Shown: piece by piece, positions 7,004 to 17,600 of the stretch
Position numbering within the stretch: position 1 is the first letter of the stretch
Layout: every line of letters starts with the position of its first letter
From: Bacteroidaceae bacterium
GTDB taxonomy: Bacteria; Bacteroidota; Bacteroidia; Bacteroidales; Bacteroidaceae
Direction of reading: 5' to 3'
NCBI GenBank assembly: GCA_017614465.1
Contig: JAGABW010000011.1
Span: forward strand, 253 to 64,252
Length of the DNA stretch: 64,000 nt
Program-made: the position numbers and the translations under genes
Notes under the pieces: generated by a model
The model's database searches: none
What the model was told of the DNA's origin: nothing
What the model saw: the letters and a program-made list of their open reading frames with translations, nothing else

Positions 7004-8368
7004 TTATGCTTTTGCTGCTTCTGTCTTTACACTTTTCTTCTTTCCGTATTTAACAGCGAGGAACACAATTCCACCAATCACTAACAATATACAAATTGCA
7101 AGAATCGGACGGTAGAACAACCATGCAATGGCGATAACGACAAGTGACCATACAAGACCAACGATAAACGCAATCACATTTGCACCGAAATTGAGGATGC
7201 TTGAGATGAATGGTATAATCTTAGCCAAAGTAACGAAGATGTTAAGCACACCTTTTATACCAAATATCACGATAGCAATACCTACAAGACGTAAAATCCA
7301 TGTCATCATGCTATTTTCGTCTTTTGCACTCTGAATCATCTCTGCGCTTGATTTTGTTCCCATATCAAGACGAGAGAATTTCTGTCCGTTGCCTGCCACA
7401 TACTCAGCGAATGTAGCCTTCTCAACTTGAGCAATAATTGATACGTCGTTACTTGCTGGAACAATCTCATACTTAACCATGATATCACCGACAGAAGGAG
7501 CACTTGGATTTTCACCGAGGTAAATTGTGTTACCACTTATATGGATATAATCATAATTGGTTTCTTCCCATTCTGTTGGAACATCAATTGAATCATTCTT
7601 AACCTCTGAGCTGTCTGCAACTTCGTTCACTTCTGTCTTAGAAGGAACAGACTTTGCAGCAGACTGACTTTCAATAACATCACGTCCGTTATCCTTGTAA
7701 ACCTTACGAACGGCATTATCATATTTTGATAGTAATTCATCTGAAAGAGTTACATCAAATGCCTCAGAACCACCGATAGACGAAATAAGGAAATTAGGTA
7801 ATTTATATGCGCCAAAAGACACGTCACTTGCCTGGAATGATGTATTTTCCAAGTCTCCACACACTGTAAAGTTGTAGATTTTAGTACCCATGCTTCTGCT
7901 TTCCTCGCTTACTGCATTCTGGTTAAAGTCATTAGAATTCACAGGTCTGCTTGTCCACTCGCGTGAATAACTATATGTAGTAACGGTTTCCTGACCACCG
8001 CCAAACTTATCCTTAGTTTCTTCTTTCTTGTCTTCTACCCACTGATAATACTTGACATCACGAATGAGTTTTGTCGCATTTGTCTGTATCTCAAACTGAT
8101 CATCACGAAGTTGATCGTGCGCAACCGCCGTTCCTGTAGCATGAACCAGTTTTCCATTAAATGAGTTGTCAACACTTGAAATGTTGCTCATTTCTACCAC
8201 ATTTTTCTCAGCATCCTTTATCGCATCTGCTGTCTTCACTGCACGACCTTCATTCCACCAAAGAAGGATTGTACCACCTATAAATAAGATTATTCCCATA
8301 AGAATTCCACCAAAGGAATTCTTCACACGTGAACCATAACTTGTTGTTGTTGTTTCTGTGTATGCCAT
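7004..8368 (-). CDS. TMEM43/LUMA-like (DUF1625-type) membrane protein
   Basis: One N-terminal TM followed by LLWWNEGRAV, a large soluble domain, and a cluster of C-terminal TM helices. This is the architecture I recall for bacterial TMEM43 homologues. Confidence 0.6.
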   Translation of the reverse strand: MAYTETTTTSYGSRVKNSFGGILMGIILFIGGTILLWWNEGRAVKTADAIKDAEKNVVEMSNISSVDNSFNGKLVHATGTAVAHDQLRDDQFEIQTNATKLIRDVKYYQWVEDKKEETKDKFGGGQETVTTYSYSREWTSRPVNSNDFNQNAVSEESRSMGTKIYNFTVCGDLENTSFQASDVSFGAYKLPNFLISSIGGSEAFDVTLSDELLSKYDNAVRKVYKDNGRDVIESQSAAKSVPSKTEVNEVADSSEVKNDSIDVPTEWEETNYDYIHISGNTIYLGENPSAPSVGDIMVKYEIVPASNDVSIIAQVEKATFAEYVAGNGQKFSRLDMGTKSSAEMIQSAKDENSMMTWILRLVGIAIVIFGIKGVLNIFVTLAKIIPFISSILNFGANVIAFIVGLVWSLVVIAIAWLFYRPILAICILLVIGGIVFLAVKYGKKKSVKTEAAKA

Positions 8369-8517
8369 AGTTTTAATAGTTTAAATATTTAAATATAAAG
8401 ATTAATAATCGTAATTACTATTGTAAAAAATATTACATACTTGCGACAAAGGTAAATATTATTATCCAAACTACCAATTTATAACCAATATTTGTTAACA
8501 AACACAAAAAAATGATA

Positions 8518-8553
8518 ACATAAAAGGTTGGATTCTTAACTTAGAAGCCAACC
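8518..8553 (-). terminator. intrinsic terminator ending the propeller gene array
   Basis: Minus strand GGTTGGCTTCT-AAGTTA-AGAATCCAACC followed by TTTTAT. Near-identical module at 13554..13587. Confidence 0.7.
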
Positions 8554-8581
8554 TTATCGTTTACTCAACTTGTGATTTCAT

Positions 8582-9703
8582 CTACGAATCCAACAAGTCA
8601 TCAAGTCTTTTATATTTCAAAATCTGTTCTGTCTCAGTATTATTACGTAAAAAATACATATATCCGTCTTTTGAAATGCCAAAACTGGTTATAGTAAATG
8701 GCACATTAACCTTTAATATAGGATTACCGTCCCAATCAAACACCATTAACGAACAAGTTTGCTTATCATCCGAGGTCTCGTAATCTTTATAACTTACACC
8801 ATGATATAACGCCACAAAATAATCAGAATAGGAAACAACCCCGCCAAAACACTTCAACATTGAACCACGTGAGAACATTGAAGTACCAGATTTATCAACC
8901 GCATTTACATCCATCAGCGCATCACCAATGCATAATGTCTTTTTGAACGTACCATCAAAAGAATACAAGTTAATCTGATTCAGTCGCAGCATCGCCTCAG
9001 CTATTCTTTGGTGATCAGGGCTTAAACTATATAAATATGAGATTGTATTTATATCATTCTCAACTCGAAAATCATTAAGAGTCTCAATTCCTGATATATC
9101 TTGGAAAGAATTTCCTGATAACAACTTACGATTATATTTATTATATCCTAATAATAAGTCTGAATAATAGTAAATAGAGTCGTCTAACCTTGACATCCAA
9201 CGACAAGATTGCATTTCAACATTCGGAGTGATATCTGTTATCGAATCATTACCAAGCAACAAGCTCTGTGTCAGATTACATCGGTATAAATGATTCTTAT
9301 TCGTCATGAACTCACAATATAAATTCTTATCATCACATTTAAAAGTCAAAGAAGACGGTGGAGACGAGAACTCATTATGACCATGTCCCTTTCTTATCAG
9401 CCAAGTCTTAAACTGATTATCATTTAGCGAATATATCTTCCAATAATAATCTGCTCCCGTGAAAGCACACACCAACAAACTATCATATATAAACATGTTA
9501 CTACAGCCTTCAATTCCTGTACAAACATTCTGCAAGTCTTTTTCCGACACATCTACGGTTCTTGTAAACGTTATATTTTCCACATCCTCAAAACACATAT
9601 ATGATTCAGGAAGATGATTACAACATCCCAGGAAAAAACACACCCCAATTAGAGATACGATTTTAGTTATAAATCTCAAATGTATATATATAGTATTTAT
9701 CAT
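8582..9703 (-). CDS. 6-bladed beta-propeller-type lipoprotein, paralogue P1
   Basis: Lipobox FFLGCC and a KGHGHNEF motif matching the GxGxxE[YF] motif shared by the paralogues. Overlaps P2 by 41 nt (17 nt if the TTG at 9679 is used). Confidence 0.7.
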   Translation of the reverse strand: MINTIYIHLRFITKIVSLIGVCFFLGCCNHLPESYMCFEDVENITFTRTVDVSEKDLQNVCTGIEGCSNMFIYDSLLVCAFTGADYYWKIYSLNDNQFKTWLIRKGHGHNEFSSPPSSLTFKCDDKNLYCEFMTNKNHLYRCNLTQSLLLGNDSITDITPNVEMQSCRWMSRLDDSIYYYSDLLLGYNKYNRKLLSGNSFQDISGIETLNDFRVENDINTISYLYSLSPDHQRIAEAMLRLNQINLYSFDGTFKKTLCIGDALMDVNAVDKSGTSMFSRGSMLKCFGGVVSYSDYFVALYHGVSYKDYETSDDKQTCSLMVFDWDGNPILKVNVPFTITSFGISKDGYMYFLRNNTETEQILKYKRLDDLLDS

Positions 9704-10799
9704 TGCTATTAGGTTTTATGTTTACTCCATAAAATTTATTATTATCTCCACTAAAAAATTGAATTATCCCTTGAATTCTTTCCTCTGCAACCAAGTCATA
9801 TGTTTTTCTATCATAAAACTGAAGTGATGTATAAGATTGTGCATCATCCATAATCTTATGAAAGCACGAACGCATGATATACTTATTGGTACATACTAGA
9901 GAAGAATTCAGGCTAACTCGCTTTATATCATCACTCATATATTCGTTATCAGCCTGATAAGAATAACTTCTATCCGCGTTTTGAAATTCATAGCCAAAAG
10001 TATATAAAACTGATTTCATGTCATTGTCATATACATATATTAATGAATCTACGGTATGACACACCATATATTCTTCTCCACATGGAACAGATCGGAAGTT
10101 CTCAAAATTAGGGGCCATATTATCTAAGTAATAATGAGGATAACTACCAAATAACTCCACAAATTTATTTCCGTCCAAGCTATATCTGCCCCATATACGA
10201 CCTTCTTTGTAACGGTTTTCATCTACACGAGAGAGATGCCTATCAACAATTGATAATGGTAAAATTACTTCATGATTGTCATTGATATATGCATCCATTC
10301 CACAATCTGTCATACTCATAACTACATATACGCTGGGAGAGGAGAAGTCATCCTTTTGAATCTCATCCTTCGCAAAATCAATTCTTCCCCTGTATTCAAT
10401 CGTATCACTCTCTGTATTATATATATACATAAACAAAGAAGCATCTATAATACAAATACGTTTTTCGTCATTAGCAAAAGGATAAGCATACATAAAACTT
10501 GGAATTTCCGTCTTGGCGTGACCTTTCGTTAGCATGCTGCCAATCAAAGAACCACTATTCTTATCGAATTTGAAGATTCTACAATAATATTTATCAGCAA
10601 AACCTATATAATCTTTTGTAGCAAAGAAATTTCCATCCCAACTAATACTGTCGGCGGATATTAAAACCGAATCTAATTTATGATGATAAGAAGTAAACTG
10701 CTTTACTCCCTTATGTATAAAAGATTGTCTATTTTGACAAGATATTACAAACTGAGAGATTACTATAACAAAAACGATAAACCTTGAAATCTTATTCAT
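9663..10799 (-). CDS. 6-bladed beta-propeller-type lipoprotein, paralogue P2 (motif degenerate)
   Basis: Lipobox FVISCQN. Similar length and layout to the neighbours; motif degraded to KGHAKTEI. Confidence 0.65.
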   Translation of the reverse strand: MNKISRFIVFVIVISQFVISCQNRQSFIHKGVKQFTSYHHKLDSVLISADSISWDGNFFATKDYIGFADKYYCRIFKFDKNSGSLIGSMLTKGHAKTEIPSFMYAYPFANDEKRICIIDASLFMYIYNTESDTIEYRGRIDFAKDEIQKDDFSSPSVYVVMSMTDCGMDAYINDNHEVILPLSIVDRHLSRVDENRYKEGRIWGRYSLDGNKFVELFGSYPHYYLDNMAPNFENFRSVPCGEEYMVCHTVDSLIYVYDNDMKSVLYTFGYEFQNADRSYSYQADNEYMSDDIKRVSLNSSLVCTNKYIMRSCFHKIMDDAQSYTSLQFYDRKTYDLVAEERIQGIIQFFSGDNNKFYGVNIKPNSNDKYYIYTFEIYN

Positions 10800-10893
10800 A
10801 AAACACTACAATTAATATTTACTGATAACCTATCATATTCACAACTTAAACATAAAACGCCCCATGAGCCGTATCATCTTTTTCATCCGTAGC

Positions 10894-11910
10894 TTATTTT
10901 AAATGATATTTCAATAATACTATATCATAATCACCTGCAGGCTCATTGCCAAGCATTTTATCACTAATAGCGTATAGATTATTTTTATGTAGGGCAACAG
11001 GAATAAACGGGAACAGGTTTGGAGTTTTCACTGTTCCACAATATGATTTTCCTGCAAGTCTGTCATATACATTGATCAACGTATAATCATTATTTATATA
11101 TGGAGTAAATACATACTTTTGAGCGACGAAGGATTGTCCTTTTGAATATATACCAACTGCTGCTTTTTTCTCCGAACTCAATTTGTAGTCCTTATCGGAT
11201 TCAACTCCGAAATCTAATCCATACAGAGCCGTCATCTGATTATTTTTCCATTCGTATATTGTATCCGAAATGGTTTCTAAAGCATAGACCCGACCTTCGC
11301 CATCATCACTAAATACACATGTACTTTCAATGTGATCCAGTTCCATTTTAGGTTTCACATACGTGTTTATCAGCGTTCCCTCCAAATCAACATGTAATAC
11401 AGACTTTAAGTCATTATACCCGCCTGCATTCCACAAAAGAAATCCATCTGGCACTTTTATAAAATCAAACGTATGAATCGGAATTGTTATTTGTCCCTGA
11501 TAGTTCAATGAATAATCATATTTCAATATCAACGAGGCCGCCATATCAAGAACATACAAGTATTCACCATCTATAGAAACAGACATTGGTTCAATATATT
11601 CGCCGGCACCATGCCCAACACGTTGTATCTGTTTAATTAAATGACCATCCTTCGTATTATACACAAAAAGCGATTTCATGTCATCTAATATAAATATTAA
11701 TGAATCATTTACACATGCTTTTCTTATCCTCGACAAAGGGATTTCTCCTTTTTCCAAAACCACAGAATCAACAGACTGGGTAAATACTGTATAATCAATT
11801 CCACTGTTACTATCTATTGATGGGTCTATTGGAATATTTGTCATGGTATCATGCTTCACATCACATGCTGTTAGCAATATCAGCATTATCAATAATAACT
11901 TCTCTTTCAT
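10894..11910 (-). CDS. 6-bladed beta-propeller-type lipoprotein, paralogue P3
   Basis: Lipobox LLTACDV and a VGHGAGEY motif preceded by FVYNTKDGHLI, typical of the BF3164/DUF5128-like family as I recall it. Confidence 0.7.
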   Translation of the reverse strand: MKEKLLLIMLILLTACDVKHDTMTNIPIDPSIDSNSGIDYTVFTQSVDSVVLEKGEIPLSRIRKACVNDSLIFILDDMKSLFVYNTKDGHLIKQIQRVGHGAGEYIEPMSVSIDGEYLYVLDMAASLILKYDYSLNYQGQITIPIHTFDFIKVPDGFLLWNAGGYNDLKSVLHVDLEGTLINTYVKPKMELDHIESTCVFSDDGEGRVYALETISDTIYEWKNNQMTALYGLDFGVESDKDYKLSSEKKAAVGIYSKGQSFVAQKYVFTPYINNDYTLINVYDRLAGKSYCGTVKTPNLFPFIPVALHKNNLYAISDKMLGNEPAGDYDIVLLKYHLK

Positions 11911-11936
11911 ATATATAATTTTAAGTAAGTGACAAG

Positions 11937-12040
11937 ATTTGACTTTACAGTCGGTGTTTAACTTTTCTCATGCACATGCTATAATGATAAACATGATTAA
12001 GCTTTGGGTGTCAGACTTATGGTAAAGAATGTTTTATTTT
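11937..12040 (-). repeat. conserved leader element, copy A (core only)
   Basis: 103/104 identical to 16137..16240 (single mismatch at 11967 versus 16167). Lies between P4 and P3 and supplies the last 7 codons and the stop of P4. Confidence 0.95.
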
Positions 12041-13168
12041 AGAAATTACAATCAAAGGATTATCAGATTCCTGATATTCATTAATAATCTGTTCATTTCT
12101 TTTATTAGCAAGCTCTATCTTATAATTGCGTTTCTGTGCTCCTTCTTTATAATGCTTTATTAATGAAGGGGAGACAACCATCGCAACAGTATTTGAAAGC
12201 CCTCCTACTGGATAAATCAAGGAACTAACCAAAGGAAATTCCTCATCATGTAACTCCAAACTCAAAATCGCTCTACGCGTTTCTTTAACTGCACTTACTA
12301 ATCCCGCTTCATTGGTATTAAATAAAAGCAAAGAATCTGAAGCTACAATATTATAGATCATCCATATCTTATTATCATTGTAATTGAAAAAAGAATTTAA
12401 ATTTAAGTTTTTGGATTCACCATAATCAAACCATCTATCACCAAAATTAATCGAGTTTTCCGATAAAATCTTTGTATCCCGTATCGAATATATTTTGTTT
12501 GAAAATGGCAAAGCAACCCAACAATTTTTGTCATCACTAGTCATCCATTTTCCAAGCCCCCATATTCCTTTAATAAATTCATTTTGGGTTAATAATACTT
12601 GATATTCACCACAAGGATTATGTTTATCAAATCTTCTTAACTCCATACCATTATCATCAGAAGACAGACATAATGCATATAAACTATTTCCTGAAATCGC
12701 TATTTCAAAATAGTATTCATTAAGTTGATATGTATTTATCCGATTTAGGTTCATATCAAATGTCATCATTCTATACGGAGCATCAAAATATACATATAAT
12801 ACCCCCTCATTAGGATCTATAGCAGCATCAAATATTCTTATATACTCATCTTTACCTTTACCGATGAGAGACTCTGTGGACTTTATAAAATTGCCATCAT
12901 TATCATAACATAACAACTTATTATTTTTTCTATCAACAATAAATATTCTATCATTAGATGCCAATATTCTCCATACATTGCCGATAATAGACTCAGAATC
13001 CATTGAAGATGGCTTTACAACACGAGTACTATCCAATAAGGATGATTTATCAATACATTCTATATAATTAACTACCATTTCATTAATGGGTTCTTGTATC
13101 GTACGACACGACGCCATACATAAAAGAAGCATTAATACATAGAATATGTTTTTACCATAAGTCTTCAT
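12017..13168 (-). CDS. 6-bladed beta-propeller-type lipoprotein, paralogue P4
   Basis: Lipobox CMASCRT and an IGKGKDEY motif preceded by LCYDNDGNFI. Confidence 0.7.
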   Translation of the reverse strand: MKTYGKNIFYVLMLLLCMASCRTIQEPINEMVVNYIECIDKSSLLDSTRVVKPSSMDSESIIGNVWRILASNDRIFIVDRKNNKLLCYDNDGNFIKSTESLIGKGKDEYIRIFDAAIDPNEGVLYVYFDAPYRMMTFDMNLNRINTYQLNEYYFEIAISGNSLYALCLSSDDNGMELRRFDKHNPCGEYQVLLTQNEFIKGIWGLGKWMTSDDKNCWVALPFSNKIYSIRDTKILSENSINFGDRWFDYGESKNLNLNSFFNYNDNKIWMIYNIVASDSLLLFNTNEAGLVSAVKETRRAILSLELHDEEFPLVSSLIYPVGGLSNTVAMVVSPSLIKHYKEGAQKRNYKIELANKRNEQIINEYQESDNPLIVISKIKHSLP

Positions 13169-13291
13169 CGAATGAGTTTTTATTTGTTAATAATTAATCT
13201 ATAAGATATTATTATGTATATATGTATATTTTATTAATTATTATATTTGTAATTTCGATTATGATTAACATTACAAATATCTTTTAACAAG

Positions 13292-13549
13292 TTTGATCGG
13301 CATTTTTCATATTGAAGTTTGCCAAGGATTTGACTTTACAGTCGGTGTTTAACTTTTCTCATGACTTCATGCTATAACGCAGGGACATGATTAAGCTGTA
13401 GGGTTAGACTTATGGTAAAGAAATTAGGGAATTCAAAACCATAAAGACTTGTCGATTATGCTTTAAAAGCAAACCGACGGTAAAACTAAATAAAAAGAAA
13501 ATAGCATCCAAATTTTTTAACAGAAAAATTAATAAAAATCTTTATTTTT
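13292..13549 (-). repeat. conserved leader element, copy B (long form, diverged)
   Basis: Aligns over about 260 bp with 16102..16359. The core runs about 13323..13422 and starts gccaaggatttgactttacagtcggtgtttaacttttctcatg. Lies upstream of P4. Confidence 0.9.
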
Positions 13550-13553
13550 TTGC

Positions 13554-13587
13554 AAAAAAGGTTGGATTCCTAACCTAGAACCCAACC
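13554..13587 (-). terminator. intrinsic terminator after the peptide/P5/thioredoxin-like unit
   Basis: Minus strand GGTTGGGTTCT-AGGTTA-GGAATCCAACC (11-bp stem including G-U pairs) followed by TTTTTT. Confidence 0.7.
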
Positions 13588-13897
13588 TTATCGTTTACTC
13601 GGTATGTGATTTCTTCTATAATTTCTTATTATTGTTTATATTTTATTATTGGTGTCCGCTAAAAAAGAATTCAAAGTGCTTACTTTTGGAAAAAAGCATA
13701 AAAAGTTGCCAAATAACAATCCTCATAAGGATATATCTAACCGTCAAAAGTATTTAGCGGACAAAATATAAAAAAGTATTATGATAATTCTGCAGAGTCA
13801 ATATGCAACTATTAATGCATGGCACTGCAACTAAAAACATAGAAACCGCATCACGACTCCGACTAAAAGTAGTATAACACAGTTTTTTCCCCTCTTA

Positions 13898-14446
13898 TTA
13901 CTTATGTTCTTTCAAGACAGACAACAAAAGATCACCTATTTTAGCATTTGAAATAGGATTTCCAAGGACTTTAACGTTTCCTTGTTTATCAATCATAAAA
14001 CTTTCGTACAACGAAGATTTAATAAACATCGGATTATTTTTAGAAAACACATCTGCCGTATCTACATAAGTAATCGGTAAATATTTCGAATAATACTTAA
14101 CACGTTTAAGGTATTTTATAGTAGATCTATTCCCTGATACAACTATACATATATTATATAACGAATCTATTTCTTTCGCTTTATTTTCAAATTCATGCAA
14201 ACGAACTAACTTATTAGATAAGCATGACGAACACCGTAAAGAATCAAAATATAATACATGAATATAATTTGTTTTATCCAACCAATTTGAATCTTCACCA
14301 ACAAATATCATCTTATTTACTTGTAAATTAATAGGAGTGGAAATAAATTGTTTAATTTGTTCATCTTGAGAATTACAAGAACACATACTTTTCATAACTA
14401 CTATTAAAATACAGAATATATTATATCTATTTTTAAGAATATCCAT
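13898..14446 (-). CDS. thioredoxin-fold (TlpA/redoxin-like) lipoprotein with CSSC motif
   Basis: Lipobox SMCSCNS. HVLYFDSLRCSSCLSNKL gives a beta-CxxC-alpha layout. C-terminal FMIDKQGNVKVLGNP is typical of redoxin folds. Starts 8 nt after the P5 stop. Confidence 0.65.
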   Translation of the reverse strand: MDILKNRYNIFCILIVVMKSMCSCNSQDEQIKQFISTPINLQVNKMIFVGEDSNWLDKTNYIHVLYFDSLRCSSCLSNKLVRLHEFENKAKEIDSLYNICIVVSGNRSTIKYLKRVKYYSKYLPITYVDTADVFSKNNPMFIKSSLYESFMIDKQGNVKVLGNPISNAKIGDLLLSVLKEHK

Positions 14447-14454
14447 ACCTCAGT

Positions 14455-15552
14455 TTATTTTATATGCCAATACAATACAGGATTATGTCCCGATTCAATG
14501 GTTTTGTTTTTCACCAAATCATCATTTATATTATCCGCTTGAACTACTTCAATAAATCCTTCAGATGTTGAATATTCGATTGGGTACTCCATACAACGTC
14601 CTAACTTTGAATCTATAACATGCATATATGGATAAAACTGACTCTCTAATGTAGTTTTATTAAACACAGACAAACATGGCATGTTTTTATCAAAACAAAC
14701 AATCCAAGCATAATCTGCATTTTCAGTTATATATTTTATATTTCCCCGACTATTAGCCAATCTTTCTTTGGTTTCATTACGGTCCAAACCTTTAACATCA
14801 TCATAAACTATATTGTTATTTCCAAAATCAATTTGATATAATATATCCAAACTATTATCCTCATTAATCTTATAAACATTATTGTCTAAATATCTATGAT
14901 ATGATAAATAACCATCAGGTGTTTTTTGAAATGGGTGAACCTCAACATGATCAATTCTATCATTATTTGTAAAATAATTCATTAGCACATGCAATTTTTC
15001 ATTTGTAACAACCAATTCACCCACATTATAATCAGTAGTCATAAAATAAAAACACCTATTTAAATATTCCATATTTTCGGCATAAAACGGTATTTCCCGT
15101 TTTTCAGTTAGTTTTCCATCAAAAGTATATGTATACACATTCTTGCGATTACAAAGGGCATAAATTAATTTGTTTTCTTCATCTATATTGAAATCACTTA
15201 TTGATATATATTCATTATGTCCACTTCCGATTTCTCCTATCTCACACAGAAATTTTCCTGTATTTACACTAAAGCACATCATCTTTCTGGCCAAATCTTT
15301 ATCTAATATAAACAATAAAGAATCAGAAATGACAATTTTATCTATATTACCAATCTTGGATTTCTCAGTTTCCTCTAATTTTAACATTTCAGATTTACTA
15401 AAAAATGATTGAATGTCTAAACTATCAGTTTCATTTAGTAGACTACAATCCCATTCATATTTTGCCATCTTAGGTTGTGTTGTGTTTGAATTACAAGAAT
15501 ATATAAACACCACAGCCAAAACAATCATTATATAGGTTAATTTTGATTTCAT
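14455..15552 (-). CDS. 6-bladed beta-propeller-type lipoprotein, paralogue P5
   Basis: Lipobox FIYSCNS and an IGSGHNEY motif preceded by FSVNTGKFL. Confidence 0.7.
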   Translation of the reverse strand: MKSKLTYIMIVLAVVFIYSCNSNTTQPKMAKYEWDCSLLNETDSLDIQSFFSKSEMLKLEETEKSKIGNIDKIVISDSLLFILDKDLARKMMCFSVNTGKFLCEIGEIGSGHNEYISISDFNIDEENKLIYALCNRKNVYTYTFDGKLTEKREIPFYAENMEYLNRCFYFMTTDYNVGELVVTNEKLHVLMNYFTNNDRIDHVEVHPFQKTPDGYLSYHRYLDNNVYKINEDNSLDILYQIDFGNNNIVYDDVKGLDRNETKERLANSRGNIKYITENADYAWIVCFDKNMPCLSVFNKTTLESQFYPYMHVIDSKLGRCMEYPIEYSTSEGFIEVVQADNINDDLVKNKTIESGHNPVLYWHIK

Positions 15553-15630
15553 GTTGTCTGTATTATAATCGGTTATATAAAAGAATAAATAGAAATATCA
15601 AATAAATCTTTATTCTATAATTCATACTAT

Positions 15631-15668
15631 ATACCTATCGGCAATAGGTGAATTATGCCGATAGGTAT
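15631..15668 (-). terminator. strong hairpin (possible partial terminator/attenuator) between the peptide gene and P5
   Basis: Perfect 13-bp inverted repeat ATACCTATCGGCA/TGCCGATAGGTAT with a 12-nt loop, 21 nt after the peptide stop. There is no clean U-run. Confidence 0.5.
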
Positions 15669-15689
15669 AATTAAATTAAAGTTCAATTA

Positions 15690-15986
15690 CTAACAATTTT
15701 TTCCACACTCACAAGTTTTATCACCTGGTGTATAACAAGGATTGCACGGACCATTCTCTTCACATGCACGATAGTCGCCAGTACCAACTCCTGGACAATC
15801 ATGAATTTGAGACCAAGCATATTTGGTCATTGCGGCAGCATCACCACCATCATCACTTAAAGCTTCAATATTCTCAGACATTAATGTACTTTCTTTAACA
15901 CTATATGCATCATACGCCTTAATGCCACCAAAGCCAGCAGCAACAACAGCAAATGCAAACATCGCAGTTTTTATAACTTTTTTCAT
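15690..15986 (-). CDS. small Cys-rich secreted/anchored peptide with NVEALA-like motif (98 aa)
   Basis: MKKVIKTAMFAFAVVAAGFGG... hydrophobic N-terminus, then SENIEALSDDGG, then a C-terminal 35 aa with 7 Cys. The track ORF starts at 16067, but that 27-aa extension precedes a canonical MKK signal start. Confidence 0.75.
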   Translation of the reverse strand: MKKVIKTAMFAFAVVAAGFGGIKAYDAYSVKESTLMSENIEALSDDGGDAAAMTKYAWSQIHDCPGVGTGDYRACEENGPCNPCYTPGDKTCECGKNC

Positions 15987-16101
15987 AATTAAATTTTGAT
16001 TTTTATTAATATTATTTGGGGACCTTTTCGGTCGGTATCCATCCTCTACCGGTACTGAGAATGGCATATCTCATGAAATATGTTTTCTTGATTTTTAATG
16101 A

Positions 16102-16359
16102 TTTGATTGGCATTTTCATAATGATTATTGCCAAGGATTTGACTTTACAGTCGGTGTTTAACTTTTATCATGCACATGCTATAATGATAAACATGATTAA
16201 GCTTTGGGTGTCAGACTTATGGTAAAGAATGTTTTATTTTATTCTATTCCATAAAGACTTGTTTGATTATGCTTTAAAAGCAAACCGACGGCAAAACTAA
16301 AAAAAAAAAAAAATAGCATCCAAATTTTTTAACAGAAAAATTAAAAAAATCTTTATTTT
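16102..16359 (-). repeat. conserved leader element, copy C (long form) upstream of the peptide gene
   Basis: Core 16137..16240 is 103/104 identical to copy A. The flanks align with copy B. Confidence 0.95.
16292..16324 (-). promoter_or_regulatory. candidate Bacteroidetes sigma-A-type promoter with poly(T)15 spacer
   Basis: Minus strand reads TTTG (16324-16321), a 21-nt spacer GATGCTA+T14, then TAGTTTTG (16299-16292), matching -33 TTTG / -7 TAnnTTTG. Confidence 0.45.
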
Positions 16360-16384
16360 CTGGGGGTAAGTATTTTGCATAACA

Positions 16385-16420
16385 AGAAAAAGAGCTCTTA
16401 TCACACTCGATAAAAGCTCT
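16385..16420 (-). terminator. possible terminator of the sigma/anti-sigma operon
   Basis: Minus-strand stem AGAGCT/AGCTCT followed by TTTTCTTGTT. Confidence 0.4.
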
Positions 16421-16609
16421 ATTCCTTAGTTACACAATAGTAACCCAAATAAATTAGTTTGAAAGAAAAAAACTTCACAGTTTCAACTTTCCGCGGTTTT
16501 AGTTAAAGCATATAAAAGAAAATGATTGTTAATTGACAATTTAAAAAGTTACTGCCGGATTTTTCAGGAATGAATCAGTCCTTATGGAGAGTTCTTCCAA
16601 CAAATCCAC

Positions 16610-17101
16610 TTACCTCCTTGTTATATCATCAACCTGTACTGTATCGGCTTTTGCCATTGATTCAGACTGATTTCGGTCGATAATATGGATGGTTGCAGTT
16701 ATATCTTCTGTACGGGTGTAGGTATCTGCTATAGAAGGCGCACCTGCATTATCCCCAACAGAATTGTCCTGCATTGTTCGTTCTGCGACATTTCCAATTG
16801 TGAGTGCAATGGCCACTACCGCTGCAGCTTTAAACAATGGAGTTATGCGTGAGACAAATTTTATGGTTTTAGCCTCTACAGCAGGTTCTTCATCCACCAT
16901 ATCAAGCATTCTTTGCTTGAAATCATCACTCAAACATTCTTGTGCTGCTTCACTCTCATAACTGAAAAGATCGGCATACTGCTGAAGATGTTCTGGTACA
17001 TCATGTTGCTTGAAGAAAGAATGCAGGATCTGTTCCTCCTCCAAAGTTGTCTCGCATTGCCAGTAGCGTTCGAGAAGTTGTTCGATGTACTTATAATCCA
17101 T
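16610..17101 (-). CDS. putative anti-sigma factor (single-pass membrane protein)
   Basis: 163 aa with one TM (LFKAAAVVAIALTIGNV). Overlaps the 3' end of the ECF sigma gene by 11 nt. Confidence 0.55.
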   Translation of the reverse strand: MDYKYIEQLLERYWQCETTLEEEQILHSFFKQHDVPEHLQQYADLFSYESEAAQECLSDDFKQRMLDMVDEEPAVEAKTIKFVSRITPLFKAAAVVAIALTIGNVAERTMQDNSVGDNAGAPSIADTYTRTEDITATIHIIDRNQSESMAKADTVQVDDITRR

Positions 17102-17600
17102 TTTTTTGTTTTTTAAGTTGTTCTTTTAACTGTTGTCTTGCTCTGAAAAGTGTTACTTTTACATCTGCCAGACTTATATTCATCATTAAAGATATTTCTT
17201 GGTAGTTTCGGCCTTCGATGTCTCTCAACTGAATGACTGTCCTTTGTTTCTCAGGCATTCTGTTAATCAGTTCGTTTATAATCTCATACCTTTGATTGTA
17301 TATTAATCGTTCATCGGGCATGTGCTGATTATCGAATCCGTCAACTCCGCTATCTTCGAGAGAGATGTTTTTGTTTTCATGCTTTGCGTTGTGGTCAAGT
17401 GCCTGGTTTCTGCAGACTGTCATCGCATAAACGGTGAGATTATCTACTTCCTTCAGTTTCTCGCGCCCTTCCCAAAGTTTGATCAGTGTATCTTGCACGA
17501 CATCTTCTGCTTCTTGCTTGTTGCACGTAATTCGCAACGCAAGCCTGTAGAGTTTATCTCCAAGTGGCAATATGTCGTTCTTGAAACTGATCTCTTTCAT
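17091..17600 (-). CDS. ECF-type RNA polymerase sigma-70 family factor
   Basis: Region 2 (AEDVVQDTLIKLW) and region 4 (QRTVIQLRDIEGRNYQEISLMMNISLADVKVTLFRARQQL). Confidence 0.85.
   Translation of the reverse strand: MKEISFKNDILPLGDKLYRLALRITCNKQEAEDVVQDTLIKLWEGREKLKEVDNLTVYAMTVCRNQALDHNAKHENKNISLEDSGVDGFDNQHMPDERLIYNQRYEIINELINRMPEKQRTVIQLRDIEGRNYQEISLMMNISLADVKVTLFRARQQLKEQLKKQKNGL

Follow-up and report, generated by a model that had tools for sequence, protein, structure and literature searches.

A 64,000-nucleotide (nt) stretch of the genome of a Bacteroidaceae bacterium (assembly GCA_017614465.1, contig JAGABW010000011.1, positions 253 to 64,252; hereafter the window) carries three copies, A, B and C, of an element of about 104 nt, each in front of a minus-strand gene, which raises the question of what the element is. 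The initial annotation offered a cis-regulatory RNA leader, a processing or stability site, and a target of the adjacent extracytoplasmic function (ECF) sigma factor as alternatives. We consider it probable that the element is the core of a multi-copy promoter-plus-leader module, that is, a cis-acting structured 5' leader whose copies are kept alike partly by gene conversion. The 104 nt are only the middle of this module, which spans ~270-400 nt of promoter and leader on the gene (minus) strand, the leader accounting for ~200-330 nt. Transcription, its start site and any regulatory effect we infer from sequence. The copies and the genes behind them are listed here; P1-P9 denote predicted helices of the leader, and the two genes that bear similar labels are always called gene P3 and gene P4.

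11937-12040, minus strand: copy A, part of a C-type leader that extends from the P2 loop as far as P5, between gene P4 and gene P3 (alignments)
13323-13425, minus strand: copy B of the 104-nt element, inside leader B
16137-16240, minus strand: copy C of the 104-nt element, covering the 3' part of the P2 loop, the P2 3' arm, P3/P4 and P5 (alignments)
10894-11910, minus strand: gene P3, a DUF5128 propeller gene downstream of copy A (domain search)
12017-13168, minus strand: gene P4, a DUF5128 propeller gene behind copy B, ending within copy A, which supplies its last four codons and the stop (HSLP*)
15690-15989, minus strand: NVEALA-like peptide gene, 98 amino acids (aa), behind copy C (Pfam NVEALA E 1.3e-5, below cutoff; alignment A2)

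The three repeats proposed at the outset were recovered. In direct alignment A and C are identical at 103 of 104 positions (a repeat search pairs 11936-12041 with 16136-16241 at 99%), and B is a diverged homologue with 86-87 positions identical to A or C and several small indels. A 27-mer from the element, GATTTGACTTTACAGTCGGTGTTTAAC, occurs exactly three times in the window (0 expected from shuffles), and a hidden Markov model of 13 copies scanned over the 64 kb found no copy beyond A, B and C. The additional similarity claimed for B and C also holds: upstream of the element it extends for ~125 nt (111 of 128 aligned columns identical), and on the gene-proximal side the two have a TTGGCA...TGCCRA stretch in common. 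Likewise, each copy does lie 5' of a minus-strand open reading frame (ORF), A of 10894-11910, B of 12017-13168 and C of 15690-15989.

Several signals delimit the transcription units in which B and C would lie.

16292-16324, minus strand: putative promoter C, with -33 TTTG (16324->16321), a 21-nt spacer containing T15 (16313->16299) and -7 TAGTTTTG (16299->16292)
13481-13512, minus strand: putative promoter B, with -33 TTTG (13512->13509), a spacer of 20 nt whose T-tract is interrupted, and -7 TAGTTTTA (7/8 match)
16391-16420, minus strand: intrinsic terminator of the ECF sigma/anti-sigma operon, immediately before promoter C, with a 13-bp stem and then TTTTCTTGTT
13553-13589, minus strand: hairpin AAGGUUGG...CCAACCUU with U6 behind it, a terminator that separates cassette C from promoter B (repeat family D3)

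The consensus of sigma-ABfr, the housekeeping sigma factor of Bacteroidetes, comprises -7 TAnnTTTG and -33 TTTG (PMC7366714). Judged by their sequence, promoters B and C fit this housekeeping consensus, with TTTG ~19-21 nt from the -7 box. Furthermore, T(A/T)nnTTTG stands in register in most full copies, and a script put the spacer at 18-21 nt in 18 of 25; the remaining ones gave either no spacer value or 26-31 nt, which we took as parsing failures. Because of the terminator at 16420-16391, cassette C should form a transcription unit separate from the sigma factor. The hairpin upstream of promoter B belongs to an 86%-identical repeat (8519-8584 versus 13553-13618) holding a terminator hairpin, AAGGTTGG...CCAACCTT followed by T6 on the gene strand; the copy at 8519-8584 comes after the last propeller gene, and the two terminators appear to mark the ends of two cassette transcription units. 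No intrinsic terminator or U-run was found between promoter and start codon of the leaders. Thus, with promoters and terminators upstream and none inside, the element falls within a predicted 5' untranslated region (UTR) of ~290-330 nt, which has no Shine-Dalgarno sequence and in which an A-rich stretch precedes the start codon. A related arrangement was seen in L024 (loci are given as L numbers), where positions 2330-2600 hold the same promoter type, including the T-rich spacer and a GATTTGTGC start, followed by a short leader with a P9-like hairpin only; since this leader is devoid of the 104-nt core, promoter and leader core can occur separately.

The same signals bear on the proposal that the neighbouring ECF sigma factor (17091-17600) uses the element as its promoter or target, in favour of which there is proximity in the window only. 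A member of a conserved family, NF058625 (PG0214/GFO_1088 type), the sigma factor is located beside core genes, the terminator separates its operon from promoter C, and the element is headed by a promoter of housekeeping type. Moreover, at least six other neighbourhoods with the element (L013, L014, L017, L023, L026 and L029) contain no sigma gene in the fetched flanks (4-8 kb where the contig allows). This proposal is contradicted, and we give it practically no credence.

The case for a structured RNA rests on the following predicted helices.

13283-13476, minus strand: leader B, with P1 at 13453-13476, P2 at 13406-13450 and P6 at 13297-13325 (covariance-model match 216.7 bits, nhmmer E 8e-61)
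16265-16286, minus strand: P1, the 5'-terminal hairpin of leader C, GGUUUGCUUU UAA AAGCAUAAUC
16213-16260, minus strand: P2 hairpin of leader C, arms AAGUCUUUAUGG and CCAUAAGUCU with a variable loop (RNAalifold consensus)
16160-16203, minus strand: P3/P4 two-tier hairpin, outer stem AGCUU/AAGUU, inner stem AUCAUG/CAUGAU, loop with UUAUAGCAUG
16141-16152, minus strand: P5 hairpin GACU-GUAA-AGUC (comparison)
16107-16134, minus strand: P6 hairpin UUGGCA...UGCCAA, which is the stretch first described as tttgatYggcattttYcata; UA->UG in copy B
16021-16082, minus strand: P7-P9, three extra hairpins present only in leaders before peptide genes (alignment A5)

For leader C in full (304 nt) the minimum free energy (MFE) is -56.7 kcal/mol compared with -43.2 +/- 4.4 for shuffled sequences (z -3.1; 0 of 100 shuffles as good), and its MFE fold reproduces the same nine hairpins, P1-P9, that the comparison of copies suggests. 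P1 folds in 15 of 17 copies with differing stems (GCUUU/AAAGC, UGUGU/ACACA, GCUC/GAGC, UGUGC/GCAUA, UACU/AGUA and GCGGU/ACCGC). The 3' arm of P2 falls within an invariant 17-mer, UUCUUUACCAUAAGUCU, and pairs of this helix change from AU to UA in L013 and from AU to GU in L026. In P3/P4 both stems vary, the outer one by CG->UA (L008), GU->AU (L014, L023b) and UA->UG (L009), the inner one by UA->UG (L014, L026), GC->GU (L026) and UA->CG (L023b). The inner stem, (A)UCAUG...CAUGA(U), which had been recognized from the beginning, occurs in all three copies of the window and is borne out by its UA to UG to CG changes, but the UUAUAGCAUG loop, then described as conserved, gives way to other sequence in L023b and L026, the two copies most distant from the rest. 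Similarly, the stem of P5 is present in all copies of the window and kept in every copy having that part (AU->GU in L029), but its loop reads GUAA, AUAA, UAGA, GUAU or UCAU across the wider family and is therefore not the conserved GNRA-type loop originally suggested. Thus, the structural part of the RNA leader proposal holds: the element lies in a transcribed-looking, structured 5' leader on the gene strand, and both of the hairpins first noted survive comparison.

Conservation and pairing follow the predicted structure. Between cassettes the leader core is 68-85% identical at the nucleotide level, compared with 25-34% identity (~47% at the nucleotide level, with four-fold sites saturated) for the propeller proteins of the same cassettes and 22-39% for the third cassette proteins. 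Within the leader, the majority fraction is 0.95 in stem columns (37 of 58 invariant), compared with 0.75 in apical loops and 0.69 in linkers. On an unfitted MAFFT alignment of the core 95% of cells pair versus 27-40% with partners slid, and for P7-P9 (unfitted MAFFT alignment A5) the figures are 97.3% versus 31-42%. Covariation is modest in the core and clearer in P7-P9, where there are many UA/UG/CG exchanges, including a UA/UG/CG series in P8 and a change of GACC/GGUC to AUCC/GGAU in P9 of L045. A curated table of P2-P6 with 418 cells contains 382 Watson-Crick pairs, 22 GU, 4 AC and 10 other combinations as well as three compensatory double changes; the excess of GU over AC indicates that pairing matters on the gene strand, as RNA. 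Most substitutions are of the wobble or compensatory type, and this holds for the gene strand only. A covariance-model alignment (A4) was set aside, being inflated by one false match and by forced alignment of truncated copies, with the inner stem of L023b misaligned; the unfitted and curated counts were used in its place. The leader also appears to be modular: in L007 and L011, before one propeller gene, P1, P2 and the P4 arms are kept, and after CATGA an unrelated perfect hairpin, GTTGTGCTGATCAT/ATGATTAGCACAAC, stands in place of the rest.

Three other uses of the sequence were considered and dropped. An antisense RNA from the plus strand was rejected because, although copy B folds well there (z -2.6), the GU pairs of the gene strand are AC mismatches on the other one. 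A long-range CUUUAC/GUAAAG pairing between the invariant block and the P5 loop was abandoned since that loop varies and L023b has no CUUUAC. Finally, an AUG in the 5' arm of P4 opens an ORF of 6-12 codons in most copies, but it does not qualify as a conserved upstream ORF, for its frame is not kept: a 1-nt indel shifts it (MSLRYS... versus MFIIIA...), in three types the ORF ends out of frame, and the AUG is missing from L023b.

The element has relatives elsewhere. Over the whole window Rfam 15 yields one tRNA only at or above the gathering threshold and no family match for the element; with relaxed thresholds the best hits in 11700-16600 are FuFi-1 (19.5 bits versus 59.6) and BTnc201 (22.9 versus 105, on the terminator), both of which are noise. 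Genome and metagenome searches established that the element is not confined to this strain: ~20 further copies were found, all in one species of GTDB, represented by the metagenome-assembled genome Bacteroidaceae bacterium RUI502, and in related metagenome contigs, each in front of a cassette gene (NVEALA-like peptide, DUF5128 propeller or CxxC protein) and in unrelated surroundings. A 19-mer scan over one genome per GTDB species gave six matches, of which three are true and all in RUI502, where alignment revealed a fourth, more diverged copy; the other three (L004-L006, from Cyclobacteriaceae, Vampirovibrio and Flavobacterium) are chance matches in coding DNA without flanking similarity. A gapped-pattern scan of metagenomes added six more contigs with the element. 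Since these copies had been collected by the sequence of the element itself, further loci were retrieved by way of the peptide protein only. Searching with the peptide of the window returned 11 relatives and a profile search 49, and the contigs retrieved for six peptide relatives show the same cassette (peptide, propeller and a protein of 158-200 aa) in unrelated neighbourhoods. The leader is present in every peptide-fetched locus with enough upstream DNA (L013, L014-16, L018/19, L023b, L026 and L029-34; nhmmer E 1e-18 to 1e-57). It also precedes propeller genes (B, A, L003a, L007/L011) and other lipoprotein genes of the cassette type (L002, L008), and a covariance model, R1, recovered 28 matches. 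By contrast, canonical Pfam NVEALA loci of another clade (L036-L043, beside a Trans_reg_C regulator) have no leader detectable by nhmmer or covariance model; the leader is therefore not a feature of the NVEALA family as a whole. Nothing matched in the plasmid and phage collections, and a 20-mer from the element had 0 matches in viral contigs. A mobile repeat of the miniature inverted-repeat transposable element or repetitive extragenic palindromic type was rejected as well, all copies being in one orientation directly upstream of cassette genes, with no flanking duplications seen. Many metagenome contigs start or end inside the leader (L017, L020-L025, L027, L028, L035, L044-L046), as expected of a multi-copy repeat that breaks short-read assemblies.

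Under the reading that we prefer, the cis-acting leader, transcription from the sigma-ABfr-type promoter would start a few bases before P1 and run through P1 and P2-P6, before peptide genes also through P7-P9, and then through the A-rich stretch to the start codon. P1 would act as a 5'-end stabiliser protecting the mRNA end, and the stability or translation of the message would be governed by the stems P2-P6 and the invariant UUCUUUACCAUAAGUCU block, probably via a shared trans-acting factor, so that scattered cassettes with the same leader would be expressed together. With regard to a riboswitch-like ligand-binding core, helices are conserved with some covariation, the largest loop is replaced in L023b and L026, and the sequences point to no ligand. 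As for an expression platform of the riboswitch or attenuator kind, we found no hairpin followed by a U-run inside the leaders, and complementarity to the start site for gene P4 only, where the following feature occurs.

13151-13164, plus strand: inverted fourth copy of the invariant 14-mer TTTACCATAAGTCT, at codons 2-6 of gene P4 (exact)

In the mRNA this 14-mer is the perfect complement of the leader-B block at 13419->13406, 241 nt upstream, and it also complements the same block in copy A at the stop codon of gene P4; elsewhere in the window the complement is not found. In the MFE fold of leader B together with the start of gene P4 (z -4.35), the invariant block does not form P2 and is engaged instead in a 14-bp helix with coding positions +5..+18. 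For gene P4, such pairing may block initiation. A general leader-to-start-codon complementarity was rejected, as duplex energies are indistinguishable from those of shuffles except for gene P4 and perhaps L002 (the output of the routine was noisy).

A number of observations weigh against a cis-acting RNA leader. The 104-nt piece alone is thermodynamically unremarkable (z -0.8 to -1.7). Covariation in the core is thin: double changes occur in 4 pairs versus 0.9 in shuffles (6 of 500 reach this number) and 1-3 in slid controls. Some copies have broken helices, with P3 missing from L003a, two mismatches in P2 of L014 and a weaker P6 in L012, L008 and L029. The sample is narrow, comprising one genus-level lineage, and part of it was gathered with patterns from the element itself. 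Complementarity to the start of gene P4 is found in one gene only, being absent from the other cassettes and from a 59%-identical relative of gene P4. Finally, most stem columns never vary, and much of the conservation could therefore be explained by sequence-specific recognition or by homogenisation through gene conversion.

The first of these explanations would make the element a set of DNA operators, in which repeated AAGTC-containing motifs just past the start site would be recognised by a repressor or activator, the apparent RNA helices being no more than inverted DNA repeats. Indeed, each copy contains AAGTCT two to four times, the arms of P2 constitute an inverted repeat at the DNA level, and invariance of most stem positions is what sequence-specific recognition would give. 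However, the arms are 25-30 variable bases apart, which would be unusual, and where stems have changed it is complementarity and not sequence that has been kept (P1; P4 in L023b; P3 in L008). Moreover, a double-stranded DNA site would not distinguish changes of the GU type from those of the AC type, the former of which prevail, and no regulator gene travels with the cassettes. We therefore regard operators as very improbable.

Homogenisation deserves more weight. Copy A is a product of recombination. It has no promoter, P1, P2 5' arm or P6; it starts in the P2 loop, where it abuts the end of gene P4. At this end of gene P4, ...TCTAAAAT|AAAACATTCTTTACCATAA, a TAAAAT microhomology joins the gene to the P2 loop of a C-type leader, and the 3' limit of copy A lies in ATC(C)TTG, a sequence common to all leaders. 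In RUI502, where synteny with the window is maintained (flanks at 98% and 96.6%), gene P4 and one copy of the element are missing, and the orthologue of gene P3 is preceded by a single full leader with a promoter (L003a). This leader matches B exactly upstream of -33 and again in P1/P2, has a promoter spacer and an element that are different, and downstream agrees fully with A; such a mosaic is a signature of patchy gene conversion. The RUI502 copy orthologous to A is ~85% identical. In a further strain, that of L044, leader B precedes P0050, a homologue of gene P4 (99% identical, 379 aa, ending ...VISKIK*). After it come a terminator, a CKPC protein of 151 aa and DNA that corresponds to the window from 8578 downwards; gene P3 and the next two genes are absent. 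Comparison of 8500-16400 of the window with RUI502 and L044 thus reveals three close strains that differ in cassette content, with breakpoints at leader copies. Taken together, the junction and the truncation indicate that copy A is a promoter-less, 5'-truncated C-type leader made by recombination, most likely without a promoter of its own. Given such an origin, the identity of A and C reflects recency and not selection. Of the two causes put forward initially for this near-identity, selection and gene conversion, the former thus falls away, and recent recombination is favoured by the TAAAAT junction, the truncated, promoter-less state of A and the strain differences.

Concerted evolution might, then, be the whole explanation, with the element serving as a homology region for duplication, deletion or swapping of cassettes, the RNA having no role and the hairpins being incidental. 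This is the serious rival, and we judge it unlikely, though worth real attention. It accounts for mosaic leaders such as L003a, for the match of A and C at 103 of 104 positions while the orthologous copy in RUI502 is at ~85%, for cassette differences between strains exactly at leader copies (gene P4 missing from RUI502; gene P3 and the two genes after it missing from L044) and for the many metagenome contigs that break inside the leader. It also fits the continuation of the conserved region into the first ~135 nt of the peptide genes, which are 62-86% identical. On the other hand, concerted evolution alone does not predict that stems are more conserved than loops, that GU exceeds AC by 22 to 4, or that compensatory changes occur in P1, P3, P4, P7, P8 and P9, and the leader is conserved between genomes as well as within one. 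We think that the cis-acting leader and gene conversion are not mutually exclusive and that both operate: patchy gene conversion would homogenise the copies, and leader copies would act as recombination joints for the gain and loss of cassettes.

The structured, promoter-bearing module could instead encode a trans-acting small RNA (sRNA) of ~200 nt, derived from the 5' UTR or stand-alone, with the gene expressed by read-through or from elsewhere. The multiple copies, the sigma-ABfr-type promoter and the strong structure are compatible with an sRNA, and the invariant 17-mer, which can be single-stranded, is a possible seed. In addition, B. thetaiotaomicron has a 14-member sRNA family with such promoters as well as 5'-UTR-derived sRNAs (PMC11697453, PMC7366714). 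However, no intrinsic terminator or U-run lies between promoter and start codon, the element always has the same orientation directly upstream of a cassette gene, and reading the sequence between element and genes reveals no other promoter-like TAnnTTTG. Furthermore, the 14-mer has a complement in the window only in gene P4, and there is no match in Rfam release 15, including its Bacteroides sRNA families. An sRNA is accordingly improbable in our view.

The genes that the leader precedes form cassettes of one type, made up of an NVEALA-like secreted Cys-rich peptide, a DUF5128 propeller lipoprotein and a CxxC protein. In the window the remaining members of the array are as follows.

14455-15552, minus strand: DUF5128 six-bladed propeller lipoprotein, part of the rest of cassette C (domain search)
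13898-14446, minus strand: 182-aa protein with a CSSC motif, part of the rest of cassette C
9663-10799 and 8582-9703, minus strand: two further ORFs, one of them a TolB-like propeller (domain search)

The same three-gene order is found in L013, L014, L017, L019, L023, L024, L026, L029 and L045. The peptides (alignment A2) have a conserved N-terminal half, MKKxIKTAMFAFAVVAAGFGG.KAY...ESTLMSENIEALS..GG, and a Cys-rich C-terminal half that is hypervariable and cannot be aligned, a combination resembling bacteriocin-like or signalling-peptide systems. The third gene bears a CxxC motif, CSSC in the window and CKPC in L044, and its pairing with the peptide suggests, from the sequences, a disulfide-rich secreted peptide with a dedicated oxidoreductase. 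An exact-protein look-up gave no record for the window peptide or gene P4, and a literature search on NVEALA, DUF5128, BF3164 and PF17170 found nothing relevant and no report on the cassette.

The promoter spacer has a peculiarity of its own. Most copies contain a T-tract of 11-16 in it (T15 in C, that is, A15 on the plus strand at 16299-16313); a T-tract is likewise found just upstream of the leader in L014-16, L018/19 and L029-34, and it is interrupted in some copies, e.g. B. At one locus, six independent assemblies are identical over 1000 nt (0-1 substitutions) except for a T-tract of 12, 12, 13, 14, 14 and 14, and at a second locus alleles that are otherwise identical have tracts of 14, 15 and 15. 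Such variation shifts the spacer between 19 and 21 nt. The tract may represent a slippage-prone contingency promoter, subject to phase variation by slipped-strand mispairing, or else an assembly error at a homopolymer. Together with the turnover of cassettes from strain to strain, it suggests population-level variation of the peptides. In a more far-reaching version, which we put forward tentatively and hold to be quite unlikely, the hypervariable, secreted, disulfide-rich peptides would be governed by a two-layer switch, a promoter turned on and off by its T-tract and a riboregulator leader, amounting to a lineage-specific contingency system of rumen Bacteroidaceae. Slippage would then toggle individual cassettes within a population, the invariant 17-mer would toggle between the P2 helix and another partner (the start region of gene P4, or a common RNA or protein elsewhere), and leader copies would double as recombination joints that shuffle cassettes.

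As a kind, a conserved structured mRNA leader with its promoter is already known; what is new is the element and the cassette families, for which we found neither an Rfam family nor literature. Post-transcriptional control in Bacteroidetes is poorly understood, and initiation is not led by Shine-Dalgarno sequences. To our knowledge, B. thetaiotaomicron has neither of the RNA chaperones Hfq and CsrA, and very few cis-acting leaders have been defined in Bacteroidetes. Among long 5' leaders of Bacteroides mRNAs, that of roc (BT3172) mediates sugar-dependent silencing. The leader described here resembles the long 5' leaders of Bacteroides in its 5' UTR of ~290-330 nt, its sigma-ABfr-type promoter, its want of a Shine-Dalgarno sequence and its A-rich stretch before the start, and it could likewise be a platform for RNA-binding proteins or sRNAs. 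In contrast to them, it is present in multiple copies per genome, is common to non-homologous genes, occurs in one lineage only, has no relation to described leaders in sequence or Rfam, and has no known regulatory signal. In B. thetaiotaomicron 13.5% of mRNAs have a 5' UTR >100 nt, the median being 32 nt (PMC7366714).

Among paralogous RNAs, the FopS/GibS sRNAs of Bacteroidaceae (PMC11697453) are comparable in being structured, in having several copies per genome and sigma-ABfr promoters, and in having likely spread by recombination or mobile DNA. FopS, however, are stand-alone, terminated sRNAs acting in trans on susC-like mRNAs, whereas the element here is unterminated and in every case joined to a cassette gene. 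No family gave an Rfam match above noise, although which FopS/GibS models release 15 holds was not checked. The 5' UTR stabiliser of E. coli ompA resembles P1, which lies within a few bases of the predicted start and keeps its pairing and not its sequence; a stabiliser of this type would fit P1 only and not the conserved P2-P6 or the invariant 17-mer. We are aware of little study of decay pathways in Bacteroidaceae. Promoter propagation by 'putative mobile promoters' was reportedly described by Matus-Garcia et al. in Nucleic Acids Res in 2012; there, too, near-identical promoter-bearing upstream regions precede different genes in one genome, whereas here the genes are of one cassette type and the shared region is mostly transcribed leader. 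Homopolymer tracts in promoters are known from contingency loci such as porA and opc of Neisseria, vlp of Mycoplasma and sabA of Helicobacter. The T-tract of 11-16 is similarly placed between promoter elements and its length is the sole difference among otherwise identical alleles from different samples; however, some copies, including B, have an interrupted tract, and the likeness is one of sequence. As far as we know, switching by homopolymer promoters has not been established in Bacteroidaceae, where invertible promoters are usual.

The leader has a narrow host range, uncultured rumen-type Bacteroidaceae. Within it, an RNA of ~300 nt that is multi-copy, strongly structured and far better conserved than the genes behind it is a clean candidate for finding the factor that reads it, and it marks out a hitherto uncharacterised cassette of NVEALA-like peptide, DUF5128 propeller and CxxC protein. 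Two minor features of the array may be added. The G+C content of 8000-16400, coinciding with the cassette array, is 27-34% versus ~39-41% in the flanks. In the non-coding DNA between the 182-aa gene and the terminator there is a 10-bp inverted repeat, GTCCGCTAAA / TTTAGCGGAC, at 13654-13663 and 13753-13762, with its arms ~90 nt apart.

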